A DNA stretch of 64,000 nt from a virus, in IMG/VR virus record IMGVR_UViG_3300009428_000004, positions 10,467-74,466 of that record. The stretch is one strand, 5' to 3'. Both the position numbers and the translations under genes were made by a program. The notes under the pieces were generated by a model, which worked only from the letters and a program-made list of their open reading frames with translations, made no database searches and had not been told where the DNA came from. Below are positions 2,914-54,715 of this stretch, piece by piece; positions within the stretch are counted from its first letter, which is position 1; each line of letters begins with the position of its first letter.

Positions 2914-3191
2914 TAATCTTTCCTCGCATCTTTCTGACCATCGGCTCTCGCCACTCTATCCAGGTCTGGGCTTACATTGTGAGCGTGACAAATCATGAGG
3001 TCTATTCTCATGACTTCATTGTTCATCGTCTTAATTCTATTATCTAAGGCTTGTGCAAAGCCTCTTTGTGTTTTGATGTCCGACAATACTCCGTCGAGGA
3101 TAAACCTTAGCGTAAGAAACACGAAAAATCCACCTGACAGGGCTGCCGCAATTGGAAACCCAACATCTGCTATCAAACTTAGCACGTCCAT
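2913..3191 (-). CDS. Small membrane protein, YvrJ/BhlA-like
   Basis: IADVGFPIAAALSGGFFVFLTL then LDNRIKTMNNEVMRID; RBS AAGGAG. Confidence 0.65.
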   Translation of the reverse strand: MDVLSLIADVGFPIAAALSGGFFVFLTLRFILDGVLSDIKTQRGFAQALDNRIKTMNNEVMRIDLMICHAHNVSPDLDRVARADGQKDARKD

Positions 3192-3213
3192 AAATTCACT
3201 CCTTTACTATAGT

Positions 3214-3221
3214 TATTTATA
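3214..3221 (-). promoter_or_regulatory. T4-type late promoter TATAAATA heading the curli operon
   Basis: Exact tatttata on + strand, about 22 nt upstream of ATG 3191. Confidence 0.85.
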
Positions 3222-3244
3222 AAAAAAGGCTCGTTAGAGCCTTT
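3221..3244 (-). terminator. Rho-independent terminator
   Basis: AAAGGCTC-TAAC-GAGCCTTT followed by a T run that merges into the late promoter. Confidence 0.8.
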
Positions 3245-3271
3245 AAAATTAGTAAATAAGTGTGAAGATAC

Positions 3272-3646
3272 TCAGTCTTCCTCGTCTGGATCCCTATCAC
3301 CACTATATTCTATGAATCCTATTAACATAAGAGTCGCAAATATGTCACCAACTGTGCCCATTAAGATGTATGGAAGACAGTAGTAGAATAGTTCAATGTA
3401 ACCAAGCTCATACACGATGAACATTGCCATCAATAGAATCATGCGTATCTGCCACATCTCAGATAGATTTCCCTCTTCTATCTCTATTCGCATATCTTTC
3501 ATTCCGATAAGAACTTGAGTAGTGATGAAGTAAAATAAGGAAGAGTATCCGCCAAGTATTATCATGATGATATATTCTGCTTCTGGGAGGGGATTGACAA
3601 AAACTCTAGCTAGTATTGCTAGACATAATGTATAGATGAATATCAA
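3272..3646 (-). CDS. Hypothetical multi-pass membrane protein
   Basis: Several hydrophobic segments; overlaps the iscU stop. Confidence 0.6.
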   Translation of the reverse strand: MIFIYTLCLAILARVFVNPLPEAEYIIMIILGGYSSLFYFITTQVLIGMKDMRIEIEEGNLSEMWQIRMILLMAMFIVYELGYIELFYYCLPYILMGTVGDIFATLMLIGFIEYSGDRDPDEED

Positions 3647-4044
3647 ATTGCTTCCTCTTTTTGCTTTTGTATTTTGTCTCGTAAATCTTTGACTGCGGTC
3701 TTAATCGCATCTTCGGCAAGTACGGAACAATGTATCTTGACTGGCGGTAATGCCAACTCTTCAGCAATCTGGGTATTCCTGATAGACTCTGCATCATCTA
3801 ATGTTCTACCTTTAACCCACTCTGTTAGTAGTGAGCTAGAGGCAATGGCTGAACCGCACCCGTAAGTTTTAAACTTAGCGTCTTCGATAATACCATCTTC
3901 TCCAACTTTGATCTGTAACCTCATTACATCTCCGCAAGCAGGGGCACCTACCATACCAGTACCAACTTTAGGATCTGTAATGTCGAAAGAACCCACATTG
4001 CGTGGGTTCTCATAGTGGTCGAGTACTTTGTCGCTGTAAGCCAT
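3643..4044 (-). CDS. iscU: Fe-S cluster scaffold IscU
   Basis: YSDKVLDHYENPRNVG, GAPACGDVMRLQI, KTYGCGSAIASSS, LPPVKIHCSVLAEDAI. Confidence 0.97.
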   Translation of the reverse strand: MAYSDKVLDHYENPRNVGSFDITDPKVGTGMVGAPACGDVMRLQIKVGEDGIIEDAKFKTYGCGSAIASSSLLTEWVKGRTLDDAESIRNTQIAEELALPPVKIHCSVLAEDAIKTAVKDLRDKIQKQKEEAI

Positions 4045-10169: not shown

Positions 10170-10577
10170 TCATGCCGCAATCCCAACCTTATTAAAACGA
10201 ATGTACTCAGTACGGTCGCCTTCGGGCATCATGACATATGACTCAGTGTAGGTCTCGTGGTTTCTGTTGGCTATGTATAACCCATAACCATTTCTCTGAA
10301 GAATGTAAGGTACTTCCCACTCCTCGCAAACAACACTATCATCCTCTTCAAGATGACAATGTAATAGGTACTCTTCAGACCCCTCATCACTATACTCAAT
10401 CAGACGAGTAACGCTATTCTTCAGAGCGGAATACTCCACGCTAGAAATAACTCCAACGTTCTCAATAACGTAGGTCGAGCCGCCTTTGAACTTCCAGTAC
10501 TGAGGACATTCACCCTCACCGTCCCAATCATGGGCGCCATAGTTCTCACGATACTGCGTTTGAATTACTAGTTTCAT
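10170..10577 (-). CDS. Phage hypothetical protein
   Basis: TQYRENYGAHDWDGEGECPQYWKFKGG. Confidence 0.65.
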   Translation of the reverse strand: MKLVIQTQYRENYGAHDWDGEGECPQYWKFKGGSTYVIENVGVISSVEYSALKNSVTRLIEYSDEGSEEYLLHCHLEEDDSVVCEEWEVPYILQRNGYGLYIANRNHETYTESYVMMPEGDRTEYIRFNKVGIAA

Positions 10578-40892: not shown

Positions 40893-40948
40893 AGTTTATT
40901 CACCTTTAGTTAAATTATACTGAAGAGCGATGTTCTGCTCTTCAGTAT

Positions 40949-40956
40949 TATTTATA
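40949..40956 (-). promoter_or_regulatory. Late promoter followed by a 12-bp leader hairpin
   Basis: TATAAATA then ATACTGAAGAGC-AGAACATC-GCTCTTCAGTAT. Confidence 0.75.
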
Positions 40957-40974: not shown

Positions 40975-42126
40975 TTAAGACTGAGTAGCCACTACTTCGC
41001 TTGAAGTCAAGTCTTTCGCCGCTGTAGCACTTACAACACAACGATACTTCTTACCAGCTAAGTTATTAGTGGTTCCAGTAATAGTCATTGTTGCAGTTGT
41101 TACGTTGGTGTAGATACCAGATGCAGAGATGTTAGATCCATCTTCTTGCCACTGATATGCTAGACCTGTATTTCCAGGTAGTGCTGTAGCAACTACAGCT
41201 AGAACGATGTTAGCATCGCCAGCTAAGTTAACTGTTGCTGAAGCTTGCGTAGGCTGAGTAGTGATTGCTACTTCTCTATCGAACAACAAGACATCATCAG
41301 TTCCGTCAACACCAACATCACCAGCAGTTCCTGCGGCAACTTTCATTGGTACGATATTTTCAATAACGTTTCGTGTTACACTGTCTGCGGCTGTAAAAGT
41401 TTGAGTTCCTACGCCTACAACTGTAAGTGCTTTAAGACCAGTTGCTCCACCAGCAATTGCTTGAGCGGCTGTAGTGTATAACTTAATCATGCCAGCGCCT
41501 ACGTTATGTACGTAAACTACAGCACCGTCTGTTAGACCCGTTACGATTGTTTGACCGCCTCTAGAGTAAGTTACTGCGCTACCGTTAATCAATACAGGTT
41601 GATTATCAACTCTGACGATATTGTTAGCCAGATCGACTCCCACAGCAGTAGCATTAAAAGACAATACTGTTGCTGGTACTGCTTTAGTAGAGTACTCGTT
41701 CCAACCTGGAGTTTTAAATCCTTTAACACGGTTAGTCGATAAGCTTGCTTCAGTAGTATCGATGAAGTATGTGTCATCAGGTACTCTAACAAAGTTATGA
41801 CCTGCACCAACTCCAACACCAGTAAGTCCTTTAAGACCTGTTGATGCGTGACCAGTGATAGCCTGTGCTTTAGTGCCATATAGCTTGATAGTGTCTGCGT
41901 CAACTCGATTAACAAATACGGTAGTCGCATCGGTCAAACCAGTGATAACAGTACCACCTGCATCATTGTACTGTACACCGTCGCCGGTGACATAGCTATG
42001 ACCTGGTAGTTTAATTGTATTTGATGCTAGAACGACCACTGCGGCGTTGGTTGCGTCAAATGTTGTTGTTTTTGTATTAACTTTTGGCGTTGCTGCCAAA
42101 GTGTCTACTGTTCCCCATAATGCCAT
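40975..42126 (-). CDS. Virion structural protein with two internal repeats and a C-terminal Ig-like domain (Hoc-like decoration)
   Basis: Two ~90-aa repeats (TGLTD...IKLY.T.AQAI.G...GLK.LT.VGVG); Ig-like AITTQP...LAYQWQ...YRCVV. Confidence 0.65.
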   Translation of the reverse strand: MALWGTVDTLAATPKVNTKTTTFDATNAAVVVLASNTIKLPGHSYVTGDGVQYNDAGGTVITGLTDATTVFVNRVDADTIKLYGTKAQAITGHASTGLKGLTGVGVGAGHNFVRVPDDTYFIDTTEASLSTNRVKGFKTPGWNEYSTKAVPATVLSFNATAVGVDLANNIVRVDNQPVLINGSAVTYSRGGQTIVTGLTDGAVVYVHNVGAGMIKLYTTAAQAIAGGATGLKALTVVGVGTQTFTAADSVTRNVIENIVPMKVAAGTAGDVGVDGTDDVLLFDREVAITTQPTQASATVNLAGDANIVLAVVATALPGNTGLAYQWQEDGSNISASGIYTNVTTATMTITGTTNNLAGKKYRCVVSATAAKDLTSSEVVATQS

Positions 42127-44388: not shown

Positions 44389-44718
44389 TCAGTTATCTAC
44401 TTTTGAACCGGCACGCCACTGATAGCAACTCCAGTACTTCGCTTTCCACTTGGGTCCTGGACTATCACATCCGTGTCTGGCTCTGAAACTTTTTCTTCTT
44501 GCCGGATCGTCTCTTTTGATCTCTGAATTAGGATCGCCAAAGGTTACCTTAACTACATTATCTTTATCGTTCTTAACGTAGACTCCGAACTTGCCCTTTG
44601 AACCAGTAGGTAATCGAAAAGGATCATTAAGTGTTACCTTACGTCCTTGATACTCACTTTCTTCTGTGACTAGCTCTTCGCAGTTACAAACGTCTAGGAA
44701 TTTTTGAAAAGACTTCAT
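44389..44718 (-). CDS. Small basic internal-protein candidate
   Basis: MKSFQKFL...EE N-terminus; KVTFGDP...RRKSFRARHGC...YWSCYQW. Confidence 0.65.
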   Translation of the reverse strand: MKSFQKFLDVCNCEELVTEESEYQGRKVTLNDPFRLPTGSKGKFGVYVKNDKDNVVKVTFGDPNSEIKRDDPARRKSFRARHGCDSPGPKWKAKYWSCYQWRAGSKVDN

Positions 44719-44948
44719 TCATCTTCTCCACTATTCATCATATATCGATGAGCAGTATTCAAATAATCTGCGGCTTTCGTGATCTTACTTTGAACCCATT
44801 CAGGCAAGTTCTCTTCATCTTCAAACATTCCAATCATATGCTCTGCATCTGAAAGTATGCCTTTAAGCTGAGTCTTAGCCATCTTGCCCTCGTTGTCGTA
44901 TTCTTTAGAGTTTTTATCTTCCGATACGAATGTCGCAAAAGTTTTCAT
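44715..44948 (-). CDS. Small internal-protein candidate
   Basis: MKTFATFVSE; EGKMAKTQL...LPEWVQSKITKAADYL. Confidence 0.65.
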   Translation of the reverse strand: MKTFATFVSEDKNSKEYDNEGKMAKTQLKGILSDAEHMIGMFEDEENLPEWVQSKITKAADYLNTAHRYMMNSGEDE

Positions 44949-44952
44949 CTTT

Positions 44953-45843
44953 TTATCCTAAAAGTTTTTGAAGTGTAGCAGGACCAGCGACACCATCTGG
45001 AGTCAGTCCACTTTTTGTTTGATACTCTTTGATAGCTCTTTTGGTACCTGGACCAAATATTCCATCTGCTGTCAAGCCTAGTTTTGCTTGAACTGCTTTG
45101 ACTGTATCGTTATTATCACCTATTGATATTGTCACATATTCAACAGATCCCGTTTTCTTAGATGATTTCTTAAGTACAGGCTTCTTACCAGTTAGTAATT
45201 CCATTGCACTCTCATAGCGACTAGTGCGATCAGCAAGACCGATATCACCACCGTTAATCTTTTTAGTCATCTTAACTATATCGCATTGGTCTGCGATAGC
45301 GTTTAACTTAGATGTTTTCCAAAACCAGCAAGCCGACTCGATAGCGCCCTTTTCAGTGGCTACGTATGCGGCTGCCTTCTCAGCAGTCATCTTAACTGTT
45401 TTACCAAACTTGGTATAATTCTCACGACCAGTAAGTTGCTTTAGTCCACGACCTCTGAACAACCAACCGTCACCAGATTTTGTGTTGCCCATTTTATACT
45501 TACGGAACTCGTCCATGTATACGTAGTTAGCGATCTTCTCTGGGTTACGTGCGTACTCTTTTGCATTACGCTTAGTTCCACCAGTACCAAAATACCGACC
45601 AAACACTCGCTTGAGTGCATCTTCGCTATAGTTTAAATTCTCTTCTAACGATCTAAAATTATTAGACTCATGGGCACACTGTGCTATGAATCCTGCTATT
45701 CTTTCAGGCGTGTTAATTTCATACTTGGGAAATATTTCCACAATAGCATCATACCACATGTCTACCTTATCATTACCAGGTATCATCTGGGCTAGCATTT
45801 CTTTCGTGAGTGCGCTATCACTCTTGTTCTTTTTCCAAAACAT
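44953..45843 (-). CDS. Endolysin: GH19 lysozyme/chitinase-like domain plus peptidoglycan-binding domain
   Basis: FIAQCAHES, LEENLNYS, FRGRGLKQLTGRENY, TKKINGG; C-terminal ADGIFGPGT..AIKEYQ..SGLTPDGVAGPAT. Confidence 0.92.
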   Translation of the reverse strand: MFWKKNKSDSALTKEMLAQMIPGNDKVDMWYDAIVEIFPKYEINTPERIAGFIAQCAHESNNFRSLEENLNYSEDALKRVFGRYFGTGGTKRNAKEYARNPEKIANYVYMDEFRKYKMGNTKSGDGWLFRGRGLKQLTGRENYTKFGKTVKMTAEKAAAYVATEKGAIESACWFWKTSKLNAIADQCDIVKMTKKINGGDIGLADRTSRYESAMELLTGKKPVLKKSSKKTGSVEYVTISIGDNNDTVKAVQAKLGLTADGIFGPGTKRAIKEYQTKSGLTPDGVAGPATLQKLLG

Positions 45844-46274
45844 TATTCGTTTATCCCTTTTGTAAAAGTTTTACTGAAGCTGTAGACGTGCTTCAACAGT
45901 TCCTTCACCTTAACATTTGACTGCATAACATCTATACTGCCACCAACATTCTTAGCCGCTAACCATCTATGGTGTCCATCAATTATATAGTTGTCTGAAC
46001 TAACAATGAGAGGCTTAGCCTTACCCAAAGTTTTAATGTTAGATATCTTATCGACAATTTTGTCTACATTGAAATCACTTTGCGTGGCTTTTAATTTTGT
46101 AGCCTTAACGCTCTTCTTCTGAACTCGCACGCCATTCTTCTTAAGATGCACTATCAACTCATCATAGTCCTTAGACCTGACTTGCGGCATCTTATCTCTC
46201 TTTATTCCGAGAGTGTCTTTAGCATCAGGTCTTTCGACCTTCAACTCAGCGATATATGTTCTAAACTTCTTCAT
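45843..46274 (-). CDS. ParB/Srx-like domain protein
   Basis: LKATQSDF, PLIVSSDNYIIDGHHRWLAA; N-terminus MKKFRTYIAE. Confidence 0.75.
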   Translation of the reverse strand: MKKFRTYIAELKVERPDAKDTLGIKRDKMPQVRSKDYDELIVHLKKNGVRVQKKSVKATKLKATQSDFNVDKIVDKISNIKTLGKAKPLIVSSDNYIIDGHHRWLAAKNVGGSIDVMQSNVKVKELLKHVYSFSKTFTKGINE

Positions 46275-49200
46275 ACTTTAATTACTTTATCTGATGTGCC
46301 AAAGTTTTTCTTACGCATGATAGTCTTGTTAACTACTTCATACTCGTCTTTATCTTTATTATAGTTGATTACGATAGGCAGATTCAAGTCAGCTTGCATG
46401 TCTTTTAATACAGCTTCACTATCTGGATTCTGTCTGATCTCTACTGCTTTTCTCTTAGCAATTTTCTTAAACACTTTTTGCAACTCTGCCACAGTGATTG
46501 CCGGCTTGTTACGTGAATCGTTCATACGATCTGCAAAGTGTCTAGTGAATTCGATATCGATTTTGAATTTAGCAAGTAGTCGATCACCAAACTTCTCTAG
46601 GTCTTGCAACTGCTTCTGCGTAACGTCTTCACTGAACATCTCATCAAATGATTCGTTAATACTTTGTCCAGGAGTATCTTTCTTGTAACGCTTAGTAACT
46701 TTATCAGTACCTTTGTCTCCAGCTCCACCCTCTTCGGTTACCATCTTCGCTAATAGCTTAGAGTCAACGTTTTTGTAGCTTCTAGCGATCTGTGCGGCGT
46801 AGTAACCTACGTCATGTCGCATACTGCCTTTTGGTCCAGTAGTCTCTTTTTTCTTTCTAGAGATTAAATCTTTTAGTGTTTTAAGTGCGTGTTGGTATTG
46901 TGTTTTATATAGCTTTAGACCTAACTTATCTTTGATCATCTCGGTTGGACTTTTCTCCATAAATAGATTTTCAAAGGATTCATCTACACTTTCTTTCGGT
47001 ACACAATTAGGAACTAGCTTGCCGTTTTTCTTCTTCATGCCTTTTTGCTCATGAGAGTCCCAACAAGGGTCGTCTTCTTTAATTGATTTGCCTTCGCTGT
47101 CGTATCCTGGCTTGCCAGCTTTCTCTTTCTTAGAGATAGCAATTGCGGCTCTTTGTGCAGGAGATACTGCGCCTTCTTCTAGATCAACTTCTTCTTTACG
47201 TACTTTAGCGGCAAGGTCTGCGTCAGCTTTACCCCATGTACCAGATGATTTAGTAATGAAAGAGTTAACACGTGCAAAGCCCCATTGTTGAGGAGTAGTA
47301 CCAGGTCTGTGACCAGTTCTCCATGCGGCAATACCTCTGTCATAAACTTTCTTTAGAACACTCAATGGCATTCCAGACTTCTCTGCTTTCTTTTTTAAAC
47401 CTTCATTACCCTTCTCTTCGTCTAGTAATACTTGATTAAAGATGTCATTAGAGGTCTCTTCGATGAAAGATATCAGATCAGCATCACAATCGAACTCTTC
47501 ATTTCTGGTCTCGGGTCTGTTTATTGAACGAACTTTCTTACGTAATTCACGTGTCAGTAAACCGTCCATCTCACGCTCATGCTCTCGACTCAGATTATTT
47601 CGTTCATCTTTGTGGTGCTTCTTTAGAGTCTTTTCTGCATCAGTATTGATAGCTATCTCTTCTAATTCTTGAGCTTCTGGAGTCTTTTTCTTGAATGCAC
47701 GAAATCTAGCGTCTAATTTTATTTTACCGTCTTTCTTAAACATCTGATGAAATCTTTGCACTTTAGGAGATTCGAACTCTTCATCGAACTGTTGATTTAC
47801 TACAAACTCTTCAAAAGTCTCGTTTACTTTACCGTATGTCTCGCACGGAGTTTTACCACATCCACAGTTTTTTTGCTCTTCAACAGGCTTCTCATGAGTG
47901 TATCCCATTTTCTTCATACGAAGATGATCTTCTTCTTTATCAGCTTTGTAACTTTTTCCAGTCTTTGGGTCATACATCATATGAGGCTCGAACGCTTCAC
48001 CATACATTTGATCATATTTTTTAGTGTGCTTCGATGTCTTAGTTTTAGCCTGTGCATCGCCAGGAGCTGGCTCATATGCGGCAGGATTATCGTCATTCAT
48101 TTCAGCGCCCTTCTTGAAATGTGCGTCACGTTTTACTTTAGTTGACTTAGCAAGACCTTTGTGATACACTGCAGGCTGTGTGCCTTTACGATCAGCAATA
48201 TCTTTATCTTGACCAACACTTGGAGCTTCAAATAGTCTTTCGAATTGCTCGTTAAACTCCTCATTCTTGCTCTTGCTGTTTAATCTAGCTAGGTCTGCTT
48301 TACGCACACTAGGAAGGATCTTCTTAGCAATCTTATCGATAGCTGCCTTCTTCTTAGAAACTCTCTTGTCAATCATCATCTTTTCTGAGGGAGAAAGTGA
48401 TGCATACTTTTCGCCTTTCTTACCAGCGATCTTCTTACGAATAATCTTGATAGCGGCCTTTCTCGCACGAGACTTCAGCATAGTCATAGTTGCGGCTTTT
48501 TTAGACAGACGCTTACGTGCGGCGGCAATCTTGTTTTTATACTTACGCATTACAATGCCACGATTACGGCGTTGCTGTACTGTTAGAACTGCTTCGTCTA
48601 GTTCCATCTCTTCAGCGATCTTTAATCCACCACGAACCAAATCGTAGATGTCTTCTGCATCTCTCTGTAATTTCTTAGGTAGTCCAGTTGTGAACTTCTT
48701 CATGTCGCCTTGAGATGCCAATAATCTCATTTTAGATGCAGACATGCCCGAAACGTCATCGGCATCTGGATCACGATCACCAGCAGATACAACTTCAATG
48801 TTATCAAACTTGTAGTCTTTACCGTTATATTTATTGAGTAGTTCGTCAAATTGCTTGATTCTGTCTGAACCTACAACCAAGATGACTTTAGAGTACTTTG
48901 ACTGTAGCTCTTGCATGATTTGGATAATAGTCTTGGATTTAGACTTCTCGATCACATTGTTGCCGAATGCTTTCTTGGCAAGCATGATCTTATCGTCATA
49001 CGCCAAAGGATTCTTTTTAGCATCCTGTGTATGAGATATGTAAACTTTTGGGACTGCGGAAGCTTTACGTGCAACAGCTTTAATCTTGTTGACTAGCTTC
49101 TCATGTCCAACAGTGATGGGATTCATTCTGCCCCATCCAAGAACTACAGTCTTATCGACCGCTTCGTCTAGAGTGGGATTGATATCAATAGTGTTCTTTA

Positions 49201-49291
49201 CTAAAACTTCGTTTTCTTTATCTAACTTAGCTTTAGCCTTTTTCTTGACAACCTTCTTCTCAACAGGTTTAGTGTCTTCTATATCGTCCAT
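46271..49291 (-). CDS. Large modular protein: N-terminal cytidylyltransferase-like (HIGH) domain plus multiple internal-protein modules
   Basis: GWGRMNPITVGHEKL, VVGSDR, SAGDRDPD, MSASKMR; later VYDRGIAAW...QWGFARVNSF, CW...KNGKLVPNCVP, FTRHFADRMND. Confidence 0.8.
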   Translation of the reverse strand: MDDIEDTKPVEKKVVKKKAKAKLDKENEVLVKNTIDINPTLDEAVDKTVVLGWGRMNPITVGHEKLVNKIKAVARKASAVPKVYISHTQDAKKNPLAYDDKIMLAKKAFGNNVIEKSKSKTIIQIMQELQSKYSKVILVVGSDRIKQFDELLNKYNGKDYKFDNIEVVSAGDRDPDADDVSGMSASKMRLLASQGDMKKFTTGLPKKLQRDAEDIYDLVRGGLKIAEEMELDEAVLTVQQRRNRGIVMRKYKNKIAAARKRLSKKAATMTMLKSRARKAAIKIIRKKIAGKKGEKYASLSPSEKMMIDKRVSKKKAAIDKIAKKILPSVRKADLARLNSKSKNEEFNEQFERLFEAPSVGQDKDIADRKGTQPAVYHKGLAKSTKVKRDAHFKKGAEMNDDNPAAYEPAPGDAQAKTKTSKHTKKYDQMYGEAFEPHMMYDPKTGKSYKADKEEDHLRMKKMGYTHEKPVEEQKNCGCGKTPCETYGKVNETFEEFVVNQQFDEEFESPKVQRFHQMFKKDGKIKLDARFRAFKKKTPEAQELEEIAINTDAEKTLKKHHKDERNNLSREHEREMDGLLTRELRKKVRSINRPETRNEEFDCDADLISFIEETSNDIFNQVLLDEEKGNEGLKKKAEKSGMPLSVLKKVYDRGIAAWRTGHRPGTTPQQWGFARVNSFITKSSGTWGKADADLAAKVRKEEVDLEEGAVSPAQRAAIAISKKEKAGKPGYDSEGKSIKEDDPCWDSHEQKGMKKKNGKLVPNCVPKESVDESFENLFMEKSPTEMIKDKLGLKLYKTQYQHALKTLKDLISRKKKETTGPKGSMRHDVGYYAAQIARSYKNVDSKLLAKMVTEEGGAGDKGTDKVTKRYKKDTPGQSINESFDEMFSEDVTQKQLQDLEKFGDRLLAKFKIDIEFTRHFADRMNDSRNKPAITVAELQKVFKKIAKRKAVEIRQNPDSEAVLKDMQADLNLPIVINYNKDKDEYEVVNKTIMRKKNFGTSDKVIKV

Positions 49292-49376
49292 TTTTATCCT
49301 CTTATCGTAGGTTTACCGTAGTCTAACTACAAATGATATTGTAATAGTCCACTAACAAGTGCTAGTGAACTATCTT

Positions 49377-49384
49377 TATTTATA
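49377..49384 (-). promoter_or_regulatory. Late promoter with structured ~85-nt leader
   Basis: TATAAATA then hairpin ATAGTTCACTA/TAGTGGACTAT. Confidence 0.75.
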
Positions 49385-49395
49385 ATATATGGTTG

Positions 49396-49899
49396 CTATG
49401 AATCTGTAGTTGTCGGTGACATATGCTGATTATAAACATCTCTCAACGTTCTAGCATCTTCTTCTGCGGCATCAGCGTGAGCCTTAGCTTCTTCTAATGC
49501 GATATTGGCTGCCAATAGTCTAGCCTCAGCCATTCTAACATCTTCTTCCATACGTTGCAACATACGTGCCATATCTTTGGCTTCTTGAATCTTTGCCGCT
49601 TCAACGACAGGATCAACCATAGGCTGTATCTCAGCAAAAACTTCAGATAGAAGTGGATCGTCCTGAGGCTCTGGTATATCAATCAACTCTTCTGAGAATT
49701 CTGGGTGTAATGGATGCTCTGACACCTCAAACTCATAAGCGACATCTTCAGCTTCCATGTCTTCTTCAATCTTCTTGAGAGTGATAAATTCTTGAAGTTG
49801 GGCAATTAGATGAGACTTAACAAGTCTTCTATCCAATTCAATACCAATCGTTCTTCCATATGATTCTAGATCAGACTTGCTCATTGATTCGAATTCCAT
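49396..49899 (-). CDS. Acidic coiled-coil protein
   Basis: KSDLESYGRTIGIELDRR N-terminal motif; C-terminal coiled coil. Confidence 0.6.
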   Translation of the reverse strand: MEFESMSKSDLESYGRTIGIELDRRLVKSHLIAQLQEFITLKKIEEDMEAEDVAYEFEVSEHPLHPEFSEELIDIPEPQDDPLLSEVFAEIQPMVDPVVEAAKIQEAKDMARMLQRMEEDVRMAEARLLAANIALEEAKAHADAAEEDARTLRDVYNQHMSPTTTDS

Positions 49900-49902
49900 A
49901 TT

Positions 49903-50085
49903 CTACTTCTCCGACTTCATGAATGTCCAGATACCGTATGCTAATCCAGCCCAGGCTGCGATCTTCACGATACCACCAAATAGAATGATTGCTATGCAAC
50001 CAGCTACAATAACACCAGCGTCTAAGCTAGTTCTTTCTAAAAATCTTTCTTTTAACCAATTCATAATTATCTCCTTTAAATGCAA
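49903..50085 (-). CDS. Small two-TM membrane protein
   Basis: RFLERTSLDAGVIVAG...GLAYGIWTFMKSE; late promoter at 50127-50134. Confidence 0.6.
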   Translation of the reverse strand: MHLKEIIMNWLKERFLERTSLDAGVIVAGCIAIILFGGIVKIAAWAGLAYGIWTFMKSEK

Positions 50086-50164
50086 AAGCAGGCATTAAGC
50101 CCGCTTTATTAGTTGACTCGTACTATTATTTATAATAGCACGAATATGATGTCAAGTGAATTTA

Positions 50165-50329
50165 TTAGTCCTGCATCATAACTCGCTTGGCTTCTTCATG
50201 CATTCCCATCTGACTGAGTTGGGCTGCGGCTCTCGCACGACCAACACGCTCCGTAGACTTGATCCACGCTCTACCAAAAAATCGTAGAGACGCACAGACT
50301 GAACAATAAGTGGCTGTTAAAGTACTCAT
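50165..50329 (-). CDS. 54-aa protein (not in ORF track)
   Basis: MSTLTATYCSVCASLRFFGRAWIKSTERVGRARAAAQLSQMGMHEEAKRVMMQD; ATGA overlap with the DUF1127 gene. Confidence 0.6.
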   Translation of the reverse strand: MSTLTATYCSVCASLRFFGRAWIKSTERVGRARAAAQLSQMGMHEEAKRVMMQD

Positions 50330-50583
50330 ATGTCCAATATTCCTTCTGGCATTTTATCGTATAAAGGAACTTTTTTACCATTCATGCGTTCTATGATATC
50401 ATCATAATGCTTATTAGCTATGTAATGTATATCACCTCTGCAAAGTCCAATGTCATTCAAGTCTTTATCTGAAAGTCTTGACAATTCTTTTACAGTATCT
50501 CTGGCTGCCCAGTGTGCGTTAAATCTAACTCTAATGCCTTTAGCAACTCTAATGAATTTTTCAATCACAACATTTCTCCTCAT
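50326..50583 (-). CDS. DUF1127 (YjiS-like) small protein
   Basis: RDTVKELSRLSDKDLNDIGLCRGDI. Confidence 0.85.
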   Translation of the reverse strand: MRRNVVIEKFIRVAKGIRVRFNAHWAARDTVKELSRLSDKDLNDIGLCRGDIHYIANKHYDDIIERMNGKKVPLYDKMPEGILDI

Positions 50584-50680
50584 ATTTGTGCTGTAGCCCT
50601 TTGACTACACTATTATTTATGAGAGAAATGTGTATTTTAGCTTTGCAAGTATAGTATACTCGCCATGCACGTGGTGAATT

Positions 50681-51913
50681 CTACTTCTGCCAGCCTTTGA
50701 TGTACTCTGAATTGAAGTTGGCGTTACTGAACTGCAATCTATCTACCAGCTTTACTGCGTTCTTGCCCATACGATCAATAGCAACGAAGCCTTCTTGCTC
50801 AGTCACTTTGTATCCGTCTGCCGTTTTCAAGAATGTGCCAACGTTCTTAGCTCTATCAAGTTTACGTATGATAGTCAACTTAGCCTCAACAATCAAATTG
50901 TATAGCTCGAATAGCGCAACGATTTGGCTCTTATCAGTATTGGAAAAGTATGATAGTATCTCTGTACGTTTAGCGGTCTTCTTTTCTTTACCCTTTTCAG
51001 ACTTAAGCTTATCAATCTCTTTCTGGTAGTATGCATAGATGAAGTCCATAAGCTCACTGACAAATGATGCAGGATCTTTGATCTTTTCACCAGCTCGTAC
51101 TTTCACATTAACAAACGTCTTAACTCTAGTGAGAAGTTCTTCGTTCTCTGTGATTCCGTCGAAGGTAGACTTTTTAATAGTGTTGAATTTCTTGCCAGCT
51201 TGAGATAGAAGTTTTGTTACTGCATCAGTTTCTTTCTGTGTCATAGTGGCATCACCACTCATGTCTTTGTAGATAGCGTCTACCGACCAGACGCCTGTCG
51301 ATTTTTTGAGATTGCTTGCGATCTCTTTTCCAAAACTTGCTGACATTGATTCAAAAGATTTACCTCTGTATTCAGTGTGCCAAACCACACCGATCTCGGA
51401 TCTGAGGATTTGTGAAGCAAGCTTGCTTTTCGCTGGTATCGCATAAACAATGGTATTAGGATGGAAAGTAATATACGATTCTCCATCAACACTAACCTTT
51501 TTGATATCCTTTTTCGCATATAAGAAATCACCCTGTATCACCCCCTTAATATTCAATGCTGGCAAGTTCTTTAACGCCAACTTCATTTTTATATTCAAAT
51601 CACCCTTTGCGATATCATCATCGATATCTTTATTAGTCTTGTATACTTTAGGATTCTTATTAAAGATACCCTTCTTAGCAACAAAGAACTTGCCATCAGT
51701 CGGATCAATACCAGCAAATACTGCTGGTGCTCCATCCCACTTTACAGTCACATTGACCTTAGCTTTAGATTTACCAGCCAACATATCTCGCAATGCTCTT
51801 AGGTAGTTGATAGACTCCCTAGCACCATCGACACCTGCGTTCAGCAGATTATCTTCGAGGTGTTCCATATGAGTATTCTTGTCTTCAGTCAAAAATGACG
51901 ATAAGCGTATCAT
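50681..51913 (-). CDS. Conserved T4-like protein with ligase/covalent nucleotidyltransferase-like motifs (DUF6267-like)
   Basis: NTHMEHLED, VTVKWDGAPA, IQGDFLY, EGFVAID, AVKLVDR; N-terminus MIRLSSFLTE. Confidence 0.7.
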   Translation of the reverse strand: MIRLSSFLTEDKNTHMEHLEDNLLNAGVDGARESINYLRALRDMLAGKSKAKVNVTVKWDGAPAVFAGIDPTDGKFFVAKKGIFNKNPKVYKTNKDIDDDIAKGDLNIKMKLALKNLPALNIKGVIQGDFLYAKKDIKKVSVDGESYITFHPNTIVYAIPAKSKLASQILRSEIGVVWHTEYRGKSFESMSASFGKEIASNLKKSTGVWSVDAIYKDMSGDATMTQKETDAVTKLLSQAGKKFNTIKKSTFDGITENEELLTRVKTFVNVKVRAGEKIKDPASFVSELMDFIYAYYQKEIDKLKSEKGKEKKTAKRTEILSYFSNTDKSQIVALFELYNLIVEAKLTIIRKLDRAKNVGTFLKTADGYKVTEQEGFVAIDRMGKNAVKLVDRLQFSNANFNSEYIKGWQK

Positions 51914-51914
51914 G

Positions 51915-52718
51915 TTATACTCCAAATAACTTTTTTATGTCTTCGGGATTATCAAGGCTATACTTAGATTTGATATTTGTTTTTAATCTACCTTGACATC
52001 TATATCCAGCACCGACAACACGATAATCTTCGCCTTCAACTTTTCTCGCTTTACTTCCAGATGGTCCAAGTCTGAACTCGATATTCACAGAGCCTTTATA
52101 CTCAGGCACATCTAGCTTCAATGGATTACTGCCTAGATAAAACAGTCCTGCTTTACCAATCTGAATGTAGTACACATTCTTTCTATTGTATGCTTTTGCG
52201 ATAGTTCTTGCTGAATCAAAAGACTGAATGGTATTCATCTTCGCAAGATATCCAGCTTTCTGTGCCGCTGACCATGCTTCTTTTGTTACTGATCCAAATG
52301 GAATAGTATACGGAATCTTTTTATGTAATGCTAGTGGCTCTTGCTTACGAACGAAGTTGACCCAATCCTTTAGTGCCTTGTCTTGCTTCTTAGCCGCTTC
52401 TATAAAGAAGGGAATAGCGTCTTCGTCTACCGCATCGGGCTTGACTAGCGTGTGTGTCTTGTTTAACGTATCAATGCGAATAGAAGTACCACCCATTTGA
52501 GCGTTCTTATCCAGCTTGATTTCGATATTGAATTCTTTACCGTTATATAATGCTTCAATATCACCTGCGCCTTGGTTACTGTATCCTGCGCCTGGCTTAC
52601 TTCCAACATTTAGTCCTTCAATGCCCGCAGACTTCATCGCATCGAAAACTTTCTTCTCGTATGCTAGTCCCTTAGCGCCAACGCTTTCGGTAATAAAACT
52701 TTTAAATCTGACAGTCAT
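51915..52718 (-). CDS. PD-(D/E)XK nuclease-like protein
   Basis: GLAYEKKV...GDIEA...NIEIK; N-terminus MTVRFKSFITE. Confidence 0.6.
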   Translation of the reverse strand: MTVRFKSFITESVGAKGLAYEKKVFDAMKSAGIEGLNVGSKPGAGYSNQGAGDIEALYNGKEFNIEIKLDKNAQMGGTSIRIDTLNKTHTLVKPDAVDEDAIPFFIEAAKKQDKALKDWVNFVRKQEPLALHKKIPYTIPFGSVTKEAWSAAQKAGYLAKMNTIQSFDSARTIAKAYNRKNVYYIQIGKAGLFYLGSNPLKLDVPEYKGSVNIEFRLGPSGSKARKVEGEDYRVVGAGYRCQGRLKTNIKSKYSLDNPEDIKKLFGV

Positions 52719-53779
52719 TTTTTAACCTTAAATTTTGTATCGTTTGGATATTCACCAGCTTTAGAATTTCTCAACTCAATCACATAATCCTCAACGTCAT
52801 TGCTACACAATATAGTGATCTGCTTGGACGTTTTTGTAGGATACCTTATGCTATTAACTCGTATATTTTTAGATAGCTTATCCAACTTCGTTTTTCCTAA
52901 CCAGAAGACTTTCCATCCACTAGTTAATCGTCTCACATAGAAGTAGTTCATACCCCAGGCTCTGTTGAAAATCTTTTCGATTTCTCTTGCGTTAACTCTA
53001 GAGACTGAAAGCTTTGGTCTACCTATACTAGCAGTATTTATATTACCTCGTTCATCGAACCCCGATTGGACTTTATTCAAGTCTACGCCAAAAGTGTTTA
53101 AGAATGTAGCACCTTCAGAATCTGGCTGAAGATTTCCTTCTTTATCAAAGAGTGATGCGGCACCAGAGTACGAACTAAACGTATTGCCTTTAATATCTTT
53201 AAGTGAGATGTACCAAGTATTTCTTTGAGAATCAGTGAGAATGATGTCTCCAATAATAGCACCCAAATCTGCAATGGGAACGCCTTCTTTCTTAGTAGCA
53301 CCACGTCTCTGCGTAGCACTCACTATCTCTGAACTAGCAAATGGAGCGTGTGATTCGTTCATCATGGTAACTACTTTAGCTATCTCAGAGTTGCCTCTGG
53401 TCTTAAAGTAATCGTCTAGATTTGTCACTGTGCGTGTTTCAAACCTTTCGCCAGCATTCGCACCACGAGCAATGATTATATCAAACATTTGCCTATCAAA
53501 GATGAAAGAGTAACTAGGAAACTTAGAACTGTTTGGAGATATTTCATTGTACTTGATCTGCGTAATCTTAGGGTCTTGTCTTAGCTTATTACTCAGATGT
53601 GCGATACACGCTTTACTTGTATCTAGTTCTTTGTTTATGAGATTTAACCTGTACTCTCGATAGCGTTTATCATTAGAACCTGGTTTGCCTTTTGGAAACC
53701 GAGCGTTAAGCTCATAGTTCTTATTTTTTACCATAGAGTTCAGATTCTCTCCAAGTTTTTGATATACTTCTGCGCTCAT
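52715..53779 (-). CDS. Restriction-endonuclease-like hypothetical protein
   Basis: GERFE...GDIILTD...YISLK. Confidence 0.5.
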   Translation of the reverse strand: MSAEVYQKLGENLNSMVKNKNYELNARFPKGKPGSNDKRYREYRLNLINKELDTSKACIAHLSNKLRQDPKITQIKYNEISPNSSKFPSYSFIFDRQMFDIIIARGANAGERFETRTVTNLDDYFKTRGNSEIAKVVTMMNESHAPFASSEIVSATQRRGATKKEGVPIADLGAIIGDIILTDSQRNTWYISLKDIKGNTFSSYSGAASLFDKEGNLQPDSEGATFLNTFGVDLNKVQSGFDERGNINTASIGRPKLSVSRVNAREIEKIFNRAWGMNYFYVRRLTSGWKVFWLGKTKLDKLSKNIRVNSIRYPTKTSKQITILCSNDVEDYVIELRNSKAGEYPNDTKFKVKK

Positions 53780-53805: not shown

Positions 53806-54012
53806 CTATTTATCGATCAGGTTATTTTGGTTAGTCTCGACATGCTCTTCGACTATAGCTTGAATCAAAGACAATCGTCCTTCGGAGATATGCTCTTCTA
53901 GTCGATAAATCTTGATTAACTCTTCCAATCTATCTGCTATAGACTTCCAGGGTTCTTTGGTTACCCATTGTTCCATTGACCTTAATTTACTAACCATTTG
54001 ATCATCGGTCAT
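53806..54012 (-). CDS. Small hypothetical protein
   Basis: ORF track. Confidence 0.5.
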   Translation of the reverse strand: MTDDQMVSKLRSMEQWVTKEPWKSIADRLEELIKIYRLEEHISEGRLSLIQAIVEEHVETNQNNLIDK

Positions 54013-54602: not shown

Positions 54603-54715
54603 ATGTATACTCCTCTATAAACTATGTTACCATTATGCACTATTTTATGCAGTTTGTCAAGAAATATTTTTATTTTTATTTTTTTATGGAAACGCTTGAC
54701 TCAGGTTTTCTTTTG

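Follow-up and report, generated by a model that had tools for sequence, protein, structure and literature searches.

Why do five genes of a marine-type T4-like myophage, whose products include a ligase-motif protein, a nuclease-fold protein and two small proteins, begin with nearly the same ten residues? The genes lie within positions 44389-52718, on the minus strand, of a 64,000-nt window (positions 10,467 to 74,466 of the IMG/VR virus record IMGVR_UViG_3300009428_000004), which is part of a 91-kb contig, and they open with the T4-like leader M-x-x-[F/L]-x-x-[F/Y]-[I/L/V]-x-E. An earlier note on this window had read them as an enzyme payload targeted to the capsid and injected with the DNA; the five N-termini that it listed are all present on the minus strand, where it had put them. 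We consider it likely that the leaders are T4-type capsid-targeting propeptides, and likewise that the proteins carrying them are packaged in the capsid. By analogy with T4, these proteins would then be ejected with the DNA, a step to which we give lower odds than to packaging. The five genes are the following.

44389-44718, minus strand: 109-aa protein, leader MKSFQKFLDV; match to phrog_7595 (E 2e-12).
44715-44948, minus strand: 77-aa acidic protein, leader MKTFATFVSE; homologues in loci L096, L099 and L115 retain the leader.
45843-46274, minus strand: 143-aa protein, weakly assigned as ParB/Srx-like, leader MKKFRTYIAE (nt 46245-46274).
50681-51913, minus strand: 410-aa DUF6267 protein, leader MIRLSSFLTE (nt 51884-51913).
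51915-52718, minus strand: 267-aa PD-(D/E)XK nuclease-fold protein, leader MTVRFKSFITE (nt 52686-52718).

Capsid-targeting sequences (CTS) and their processing by the gp21 protease are textbook biology of phage T4, and it was noted long ago that variable proteins of T-even phages can have CTS-like leaders. In the T4 record, internal proteins (IPs) II and III begin with MKTYQEFIAE and IPI with MKTFKEFTST, the major capsid protein gp23 is cut in the context FGSFLTE/AEIGG, and gp24 and gp22 begin with MAKINELLRE and MLKEQLIAE, respectively. The gp21 protease cuts after L/I-x-E, and residues 1-10 of IPIII are enough to bring about packaging; within the CTS, residues 4 and 7 target the protein, residues 8 and 10 direct processing, and a change at position 10 may block processing without blocking targeting (PMC9026906). 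The IPs, with their N-terminal CTS leaders, and Alt are ejected together with the DNA (PMC9026906), CTS cargo being cut by gp21 beforehand (Mullaney & Black 1996, as reviewed in PMC9026906 and PMC3012670). The comparison with T4 drawn in the earlier note proves sound, as the matches fall at the functionally mapped positions (T4 record; PMC9026906). In the order listed above, the targeting positions are occupied by F4/F7, F4/F7, F4/Y7, L4/F7 and F5/F8, the last offset by one. A prohead-protease-type [ILV]-x-E closes four of the five leaders (VSE, IAE, LTE, ITE). The pattern F4, F/Y7, V/I8, E10 is found in the 77-aa and 143-aa proteins and, shifted by one residue, in the 267-aa protein; DUF6267 has L4, F7, L8 and E10. 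The start of the DUF6267 gene is credible, with an ATG at 51913 and a GGAG ribosome-binding site 6 nt upstream, which makes a longer TTG start at 51925 unlikely.

To assess how often such N-termini are expected, we used a relaxed motif, [FLIYWM]xx[FY][ILVM]xE, starting within the first nine residues, and took the expectation from its internal frequency. On the contig, the motif stands at the N-terminus of 5 of 155 open reading frames (ORFs) against 0.73 expected (Poisson P ~9e-4), the fifth match being a Zeta/AAA_33/polynucleotide kinase (PNK)-like kinase encoded outside the window. The complete genome of phage C48C1 has 6 such ORFs among 202, with 0.67 expected (P ~7e-5); all six are confined to 11 kb (57.3-68.4 kb) of the same module, and one of them is a cytidylyltransferase, when read from an upstream GTG. 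Of the 1331 ORFs in 78 IMG/VR loci surrounding DUF6267 homologues, 127 are leader-bearing. Once the leader is removed, these 127 proteins fall into 23 families without detectable mutual similarity, including DUF6267, the 267-aa nuclease-fold family, ParB-like proteins, stand-alone cytidylyltransferases, a HAD-type DxDxT protein and many small proteins. For comparison, 80 loci around gp23 contain 11 leader-bearing ORFs among 970, several of them small ORFs beside head genes. Eleven leader-bearing homologues of the 143-aa ParB-like protein were found in related contigs.

Two side observations concern members of this set. The C48C1 cytidyltransferase CDS0089 (L008:13448-14857; record 63448-64857) has its annotated start inside the conserved core; extension to the upstream GTG gives the leader (M)IKNFSQYLLEE, and the deposited start is probably wrong. 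A sixth leader gene of the contig, outside the window (contig 2998-3702, minus strand), encodes a 234-aa P-loop kinase starting with (M)LTFENYLKE; it matches Zeta_toxin (E 2e-9), AAA_33 and the PHROG polynucleotide kinase (E 6e-6), and its homologue lies within the module in HTVC008M and C48C1.

Conservation of the leader is specific to position. Among 50 non-redundant DUF6267 leaders, positions 4, 7, 8 and 10 (L/F, Y/F, L/I and E) have entropies of 0.4-1.3 bits, against 2.3-2.9 bits at positions 2, 3, 5, 6 and 9. The 267-aa family follows a similar trend in a set where Glu 10 was fixed by sequence selection, position 8 being more variable (2.0 bits) and still hydrophobic. The leader directly precedes the conserved cores, as ..E/DKNTHxEHLED in DUF6267 and ..E/(T,S)VGxxGLxYE in the 267-aa family, and it is predicted to be disordered, with an AlphaFold2 (AF2) predicted local distance difference test (pLDDT) value below 50 at residues 1-10 of DUF6267 and 1-13 of the 267-aa protein. 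It is a detachable element: 54 of 104 DUF6267 family representatives have it, it is missing in the cyanophage type, where the proteins (S-PM2, S-SZBM1) start at the core, and it is conserved in homologues of the 267-aa protein, some members lacking it. The leader codons vary from gene to gene, which places the conservation at the protein level and rules out a nucleotide-level element such as a recombination linker or an RNA signal.

The region that hosts these genes has counterparts in several phages. It lies downstream of gp41, surrounded by replication and nucleotide-metabolism genes, on a contig that also encodes gp43, uvsX, nrdAB, td, frd, gp55, gp46/47 and uvsW/Y, with nearly all genes on the minus strand and the C-terminal end of gp23 at the contig end. 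The order, namely a hypothetical protein, DUF6267, small ORFs, a 'cytidylyltransferase', further small ORFs and a head protein, is the same in Stenotrophomonas phage DLP_6, phage C48C1, Methylophilales phage Melnitz and Pelagibacter phage HTVC008M, and synteny extends to T4-like cyanophages such as S-PM2 and S-SZBM1. A megablast search of the region against 50,697 phage records gave no match, and thus no close DNA-level relative among them; close protein relatives in metagenomes number in the thousands.

These relatives supply the head context. In those with gp23 fragments 73-84% identical to that of the contig, a gp21 homologue is encoded, the propeptide position of gp23 reads L-x-E (SLME/A, LLSE/T, SLLE/A, TLTE/T), and the ORF at the gp68 position, between the portal and protease genes, starts with MRTLQDIIQE, MKTIKTLMQE or MAKTLKQMLE. 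In C48C1, gp23 reads GFLTE/T at this point, and the tetrapeptide is the one that ends both the leader of DUF6267 in the window and the gp23 propeptide of T4. Virion proteomes of T4-like cyanophages, in turn, repeatedly list a 'cytidylyltransferase' or NMNAT-like protein, its presence unexplained (PMC9146016, PMC10665884, PMC9602691). We found that the nucleotidyltransferases detected by mass spectrometry in virions of three of these phages are all leader-bearing: S-SCSM1 ORF91 begins with MKSFLQFLKE, S-CREM2 ORF154 with MKNFSSFLTE and S-SZBM1_140 with MRFRQFIIE. The annotation 'virion protein' is given to a run of five S-SCSM1 genes (ORFs 89-93) in the syntenic module. The adjacent DUF6267 protein of S-SZBM1 is leaderless and is not mentioned in the main text of the corresponding paper, including its table of detected proteins. 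The virion-detected nucleotidyltransferases are the strongest outside support for packaging, an indirect one that comes from homologues; the link is indirect also because the authors caution about contamination and N-terminal processing was not examined there.

The earlier note had placed the leader genes in a late-promoter region, and the motif counts bear it out. In the window, TATAAATA occurs 12 times against 4.85 expected, with 10 of the 12 copies on the coding strand, and ATAAATA favours the coding strand by 20 copies to 4; copies precede the operons, and gp55 is encoded on the contig. The features concerned are the following.

53807-53814, minus strand: late-promoter-like motif GATAAATA, 28 nt upstream of the 354-aa gene.
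52715-53779, minus strand: 354-aa protein, leaderless, first gene of the upstream operon; match to phrog_8438 (E 4e-8).
49377-49384, minus strand: late-promoter motif TATAAATA, in an intergenic gap 86 nt upstream of the 1006-aa gene.
46271-49291, minus strand: 1006-aa multidomain protein with an HxGH nucleotidyltransferase (residues ~45-230), a very basic segment, DUF5824 and further modules.
44953-45843, minus strand: 296-aa GH19-type endolysin with a peptidoglycan-binding domain (phrog_181 endolysin, E 1e-72; PG_binding_1, E 2e-13).
40975-42126, minus strand: 383-aa homologue of a head protein, closing the late operon (phrog_613 'head protein', E 5.5e-13).

The TATAAATA copy at 49377-49384 heads a translationally coupled operon that runs from the 1006-aa gene down to the head-protein gene at 40975, with start and stop codons overlapping at 46271-46274, 45843 and 44715-44718. 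The copy of GATAAATA is the putative start of a second operon, encoding the 354-aa, 267-aa and DUF6267 proteins. Another intergenic TATAAATA lies 42 nt upstream of a 60-aa gene, and copies of NATAAATA are located 28-42 nt upstream of the 354-aa, 85-aa, 60-aa and 285-aa genes (28-38 nt for all but the 60-aa gene). Late expression of the leader genes is suggested by this arrangement. The 383-aa protein resembles S-PM2d145 and S-SZBM1_136, both annotated 'virion structural protein', the latter detected by liquid chromatography-mass spectrometry (PMC9146016).

Three further observations belong to these operons. The leaderless GH19 endolysin lies between leader-bearing genes, and in T4 the genes ipII and ipIII adjoin the lysozyme gene e (T4 record 65416-66997, L093), outside the head-gene cluster; the lysozyme of the window, flanked by leader genes, mirrors this position by analogy, not homology. 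At 40917-40956, between the head-protein gene and the next gene, a perfect palindrome with a 13-bp stem follows directly on a coding-strand TATAAATA and could be a late-operon terminator or a structure in the 5' untranslated region. A DUF1127 gene (E 2e-12; window 50326-50583, minus strand), with its own CATAAATA 31 nt upstream, stands between the two leader operons.

The 1006-aa protein extends the leader pattern to internal positions. It matches Pfam CTP_transf_like and DUF5824 and the PHROG 'cytidyltransferase' (E 3e-97). The earlier note had counted a neighbouring nucleotidyltransferase into the payload; an HxGH domain does adjoin the leader genes, as the N-terminal module of this larger protein, and it has no N-terminal leader. 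The domain is NMNAT/cytidylyltransferase-like, the NCBIfam NMNAT models being matched far below their cut-offs, and residues 40-235 gave no match to PDB sequences. Five leader-like motifs, NEEFNEQFERLFE, ETFEEFVVN, LISFIEE, ESFENLFME and ESFDEMFSE, are positioned at module boundaries (residues ~344-355, 491-500, 606-613, 771-781 and 882-890). Four of them are conserved in 27 homologues, where they flank insertions and losses of modules; ETFEEFVVN is situated in a module that most of the 27 lack and is kept in the closest homologue only. Segments of the protein correspond to separate leader-bearing ORFs in C48C1 and Melnitz. Conversely, the ParB-like domain forms the C-terminus of the DLP_6 cytidylyltransferase, the 109-aa domain that of the Melnitz cytidylyltransferase, and in S-PM2 the nucleotidyltransferase is joined to DUF6267. 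Fused domains retain the leader motif at their joint: in a metagenomic protein that links a cytidylyltransferase to the 267-aa domain, this joint reads DFKTFYTE/S. Judged by these motifs, the 1006-aa protein is probably a polyprotein, which the prohead protease would cut at its junctions.

We infer docking through the leader, cleavage, presence in the virion of this phage and a biochemical role of the cargo, and propose the following course of events. The leader genes would be transcribed late. Through a side chain that is hydrophobic or aromatic at position 4 and aromatic at 7, the 10-11-residue leader would dock each protein on the scaffolding core of the prohead, and a gp21-type protease would cut after the Glu of [ILV]-x-E (positions 8-10), freeing the mature enzyme within the head. 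The 1006-aa polyprotein would be treated likewise and cut at its leader-like junctions. At the next infection, the cargo would exit with the DNA and act ahead of phage gene expression. This cargo would comprise the RNA-ligase-like nucleotidyltransferase, the PD-(D/E)XK nuclease, the ParB/Srx-like protein, the HxGH nucleotidyltransferase, small proteins and the PNK/zeta-like kinase encoded elsewhere on the contig.

Several points weigh against this course of events. The prohead protease, the scaffold and the N-terminus of gp23 are missing from the 91-kb contig, and the putative late timing is deduced from promoter motifs. The 1006-aa nucleotidyltransferase lacks an N-terminal leader, DUF6267 has Leu instead of an aromatic residue at position 4, and the 109-aa leader has Val in place of Glu 10 (LDV), with positions 4, 7 and 8 kept. 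Abundant non-structural proteins can contaminate CsCl-purified virions, according to authors of a cyanophage proteome (PMC10665884), and S-SZBM1_139 was detected in virions without having a clear leader. As to the 109-aa protein, its homologues in C48C1 (MKKFKQYIDE) and in the close relative L099 (MKTFQKFLDE) retain Glu; since a change at position 10 in T4 can block processing and not targeting, the protein of the window may be loaded without trimming at this site.

Which enzymes would be delivered? DUF6267 (Pfam E 2e-112 for the 410-aa protein; 2,676 clusters at 50% identity) had been called a ligase-motif protein, and this description is borne out by an invariant KxDG, a nucleotidyltransferase fold and structural matches to RNA ligases. 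In 86 sequences of 35-54% identity, K58-x-D60-G61 (motif I, KxDG) is invariant, as are D129 (QGD), E374-G375 (EGF) and K388 (KLVDR), which are candidates for ligase motifs III, IV and V. The AF2 model (pLDDT 93.7) aligned by VIA-align with 5cot (Z 8.6), 1xdn (Z 8.2), T4 Rnl2 (Z 7.6), Trl1 (Z 7.5) and T4 Rnl1 (Z 6.6). Apart from helical bundles, the matches are nearly all RNA, tRNA or DNA ligases (Z 8.6, 8.2, 7.6, 7.5, 7.0, 6.8 and 6.6; 159-210 aligned residues), the nearest structural neighbours being the RNA ligases NgrRnl, REL1, T4 Rnl2, Trl1 and T4 Rnl1, with DNA ligases next. A large helical insertion of ~130 residues separates motifs IIIa and IV. Sequence and profile searches of DUF6267 against PDB sequences returned low-complexity noise only, and Foldseek found no match of the model in the PDB at E<=0.001, the ligase kinship being visible only through VIA-align and the motif series. 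DUF6267 is probably a divergent ligase-type covalent nucleotidyltransferase with a helical insertion. It shares with the ATP-dependent RNA ligases of the Rnl2/Rnl5 and Trl1 types (T4 Rnl2, T. brucei REL1, Naegleria NgrRnl) the KxDG, the candidate motifs III-V and the fold, and differs from them in the modest Z scores of just 7-8.6, the ~130-residue insertion, the lack of a sequence-level match and the lack of a recognisable C- or N-terminal substrate-binding domain.

The 267-aa protein likewise agrees with its earlier description as PD-(D/E)XK nuclease-like, in both the invariant motif and a restriction-endonuclease-like fold. E21, D53, E66 and K68, the PD-(D/E)XK set with an upstream Glu, are invariant in 65 homologues, and the conserved core begins right behind the leader Glu. 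The best fold match of its AF2 model (pLDDT 87.6) is the HhaI endonuclease (Foldseek E 2e-3, probability 0.97; VIA Z 8.0, root mean square deviation 5.7, 180 aligned residues), followed by Hjc resolvases (Z 7.2-5.8) and also I-Ssp6803I, BpuSI and NhoI; a phmmer search matched Hjc 7bgs at E 0.028. The leaderless 354-aa protein is possibly restriction-endonuclease-like, a lead that comes from its language-model neighbours, clusters with MspI, HaeIII and HinP1I families in 10-11% of members. Paralogy between the 267-aa and 354-aa proteins is unsupported (BLASTP E 0.023). For the 143-aa protein, the ParB/Srx assignment of the earlier note stood in part: matches to PHROG ParB-like families are weak (E 3.5e-8 to 5e-4) and a DGHHR motif is present, but TIGR00180 is matched below its cut-off (E 2.3e-5; 24.3 bits against 58.45) and a Pfam search gave no ParBc match at E<=0.01, so that the assignment is a weak one.

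Most plausibly, the cargo would act on nucleic acids or nucleotides, for instance in RNA repair or in an attack on host DNA. We put forward this hypothesis because the set combines ligase-like, kinase, nucleotidyltransferase and nuclease proteins, and relatives have a leader-bearing HAD phosphatase-like family. The latter is a ~205-aa HAD-type DxDxT protein (..LTIFDIDDTLFH..) encoded in L138:9390-10004, L139:3996-4616, L157:5478-6092 and L173:2688-3308; together with the kinase and the ligase-like protein it would make a full heal-and-seal enzyme set. An anti-defence role of the cargo, which the earlier note had called plausible, is a conjecture as well. A wider proposal, which we regard as rather doubtful when taken as a whole, is that marine T4-like phages possess a modular, sequence-predictable payload locus, in which any leader-tagged or junction-inserted enzyme is loaded, trimmed and injected. 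Here, it would deliver an RNA heal-and-seal kit (the RNA-ligase-like protein, the PNK/zeta-like kinase and the HxGH nucleotidyltransferase, with the HAD phosphatase in relatives) against cuts by host anticodon nucleases, along with a restriction-type nuclease and ParB-like attack on host DNA, before the first phage transcript.

Three other explanations of the leaders were considered. The first, which we judge unlikely, is that the leader brings the proteins into the prohead as core- or scaffold-type parts, or as enzymes working inside the head (DNA-end handling, packaging processing), after which they would be degraded, expelled or retained without any delivery. This is what happens to the T4 core proteins gp22, gp67 and gp68, which enter the prohead and are cut by gp21, their fragments mostly leaving the head (PMC9026906); and the gp68-position ORF beside the protease of the relatives has the same type of leader. 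Yet the proteins concerned are folded enzymes whose catalytic motifs are intact, and they have a single N-terminal removal site, as opposed to the many internal sites of scaffold proteins, and the T4 proteins with an N-terminal CTS, the IPs, as well as Alt, are ejected rather than lost.

No more probable is an N-terminus that docks on or regulates a target other than the capsid, as in a cytoplasmic multi-enzyme complex, chaperone or clamp binding, or a stability signal. Such a function would suit nucleic-acid and nucleotide enzymes encoded amid replication and nucleotide-metabolism genes downstream of gp41. It would leave unexplained why the conserved positions, including the invariant Glu, are those mapped in T4 for targeting and gp21 cleavage, why the same motif marks the propeptide cut site of gp23 in T4 and C48C1, and why leader-bearing homologues occur in purified virions of three phages; a location outside the head-gene cluster is equally found for T4 ipII and ipIII. 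Finally, chance, start-region composition or DNA-level recombination linkers are scarcely credible even for a short motif of common residues in an AT-rich genome that favours K, F, I and E codons, since the observed versus expected N-terminal counts in two genomes, by which chance is excluded, the 23 unrelated families of the relatives, the position-specific conservation with free positions in between and the differing leader codons all speak against them.

With capsid targeting as the preferred explanation, the locus can be compared with known systems. Like T4 IPI, IPII, IPIII and Alt, its proteins have a ~10-residue leader with hydrophobic or aromatic residues at 4 and 7 and [ILV]-x-E at 8-10, shared by otherwise unrelated cargo, and the genes are likewise outside the head cluster and beside a lysozyme gene, with late expression inferred in the present case. 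The differences are that most of the putative cargo here would be enzymes 140-410 aa in length (ligase-like, nuclease-fold, ParB-like, kinase), whereas that of T4 is small and basic, that a 1006-aa protein with leader-like internal junctions is added, and that the lineage is a distant, marine/Kyanoviridae-type one. The virion cytidylyltransferase or NMNAT-like proteins of S-SZBM1, S-CREM2, S-SCSM1 and S-CBWM1 are homologous HxGH enzymes from the same syntenic module downstream of gp41. The leader was read in three of these four (S-SZBM1, S-CREM2 and S-SCSM1), whereas the enzyme of the window is the leaderless N-terminal module of the 1006-aa protein; the cyanophage papers are silent on the leader and had no explanation for finding the enzyme in virions (PMC9146016, PMC10665884, PMC9602691).

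Polyvalent proteins (Iyer et al. 2017, PMC5512222) and the packaged Dar proteins of P1 similarly combine disparate enzyme domains, including ParB-like ones, with predicted co-delivery with DNA and shuffling between fused and stand-alone forms. The 1006-aa protein joins an HxGH nucleotidyltransferase, DUF5824 and other modules, with no hub domain detected. The hub domains of polyvalent proteins (zincin-like metallopeptidase, ArdC-N, MuF) were not seen here; delivery would depend on a prohead protease and on a T4-type leader, which each stand-alone piece has for itself. In giant phages of the phiKZ-like and SPN3US-like kinds, a gp21-related protease cuts many head-internal proteins, ejection proteins among them, after Glu at short motifs and removes targeting propeptides (PMC5694885, PMC9026906). 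These belong to a different phage group with a different motif context, and the proof there is mass-spectrometric. In the literature library searched, there was no paper on the leader in enzymes of marine/Kyanoviridae-type phages, on a leader in virion cytidylyltransferases, on the junction motifs or on DUF6267.

If the leader acts as in T4, genome sequence could be enough to predict which proteins are injected by a highly abundant group of marine phages, including relatives of cyanophages, pelagiphage HTVC008M and methylophage Melnitz. This would explain the recurring 'cytidylyltransferases' in cyanophage virion proteomes, give DUF6267 its first context and point to enzymes active in the first seconds of infection, the time at which counter-defence is most important. 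As a packaging tag, the leader could also be of use in engineering these phages.

Two observations concern the contig at large. CGCG occurs twice in 91 kb against 76 expected (observed/expected 0.03), and GGCC 16 times against 117 (0.14). CGCG is also avoided in close relatives (DUF6267 identity >=72%) and not in more distant ones, and avoidance of GGCC and CCGG depends on the lineage. Self-protection from a packaged restriction-type nuclease is unsupported as an explanation: in the close relatives L098 and L099, whose loci gave no match to the 267-aa or 354-aa genes, CGCG is avoided to the same extent, and GGCC is at a normal level in L101, which possesses the two genes. As avoidance does not track the presence of these genes, restriction-modification pressure from the host is the simpler reading. 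In addition, a near-consensus sigma-70-type promoter (TTGACA, 17-nt spacer, CATAAT; 11 of 12 matches) lies at window positions 54632-54660 on the minus strand, upstream of a 139-aa gene, and marks an early region bordering the late module.

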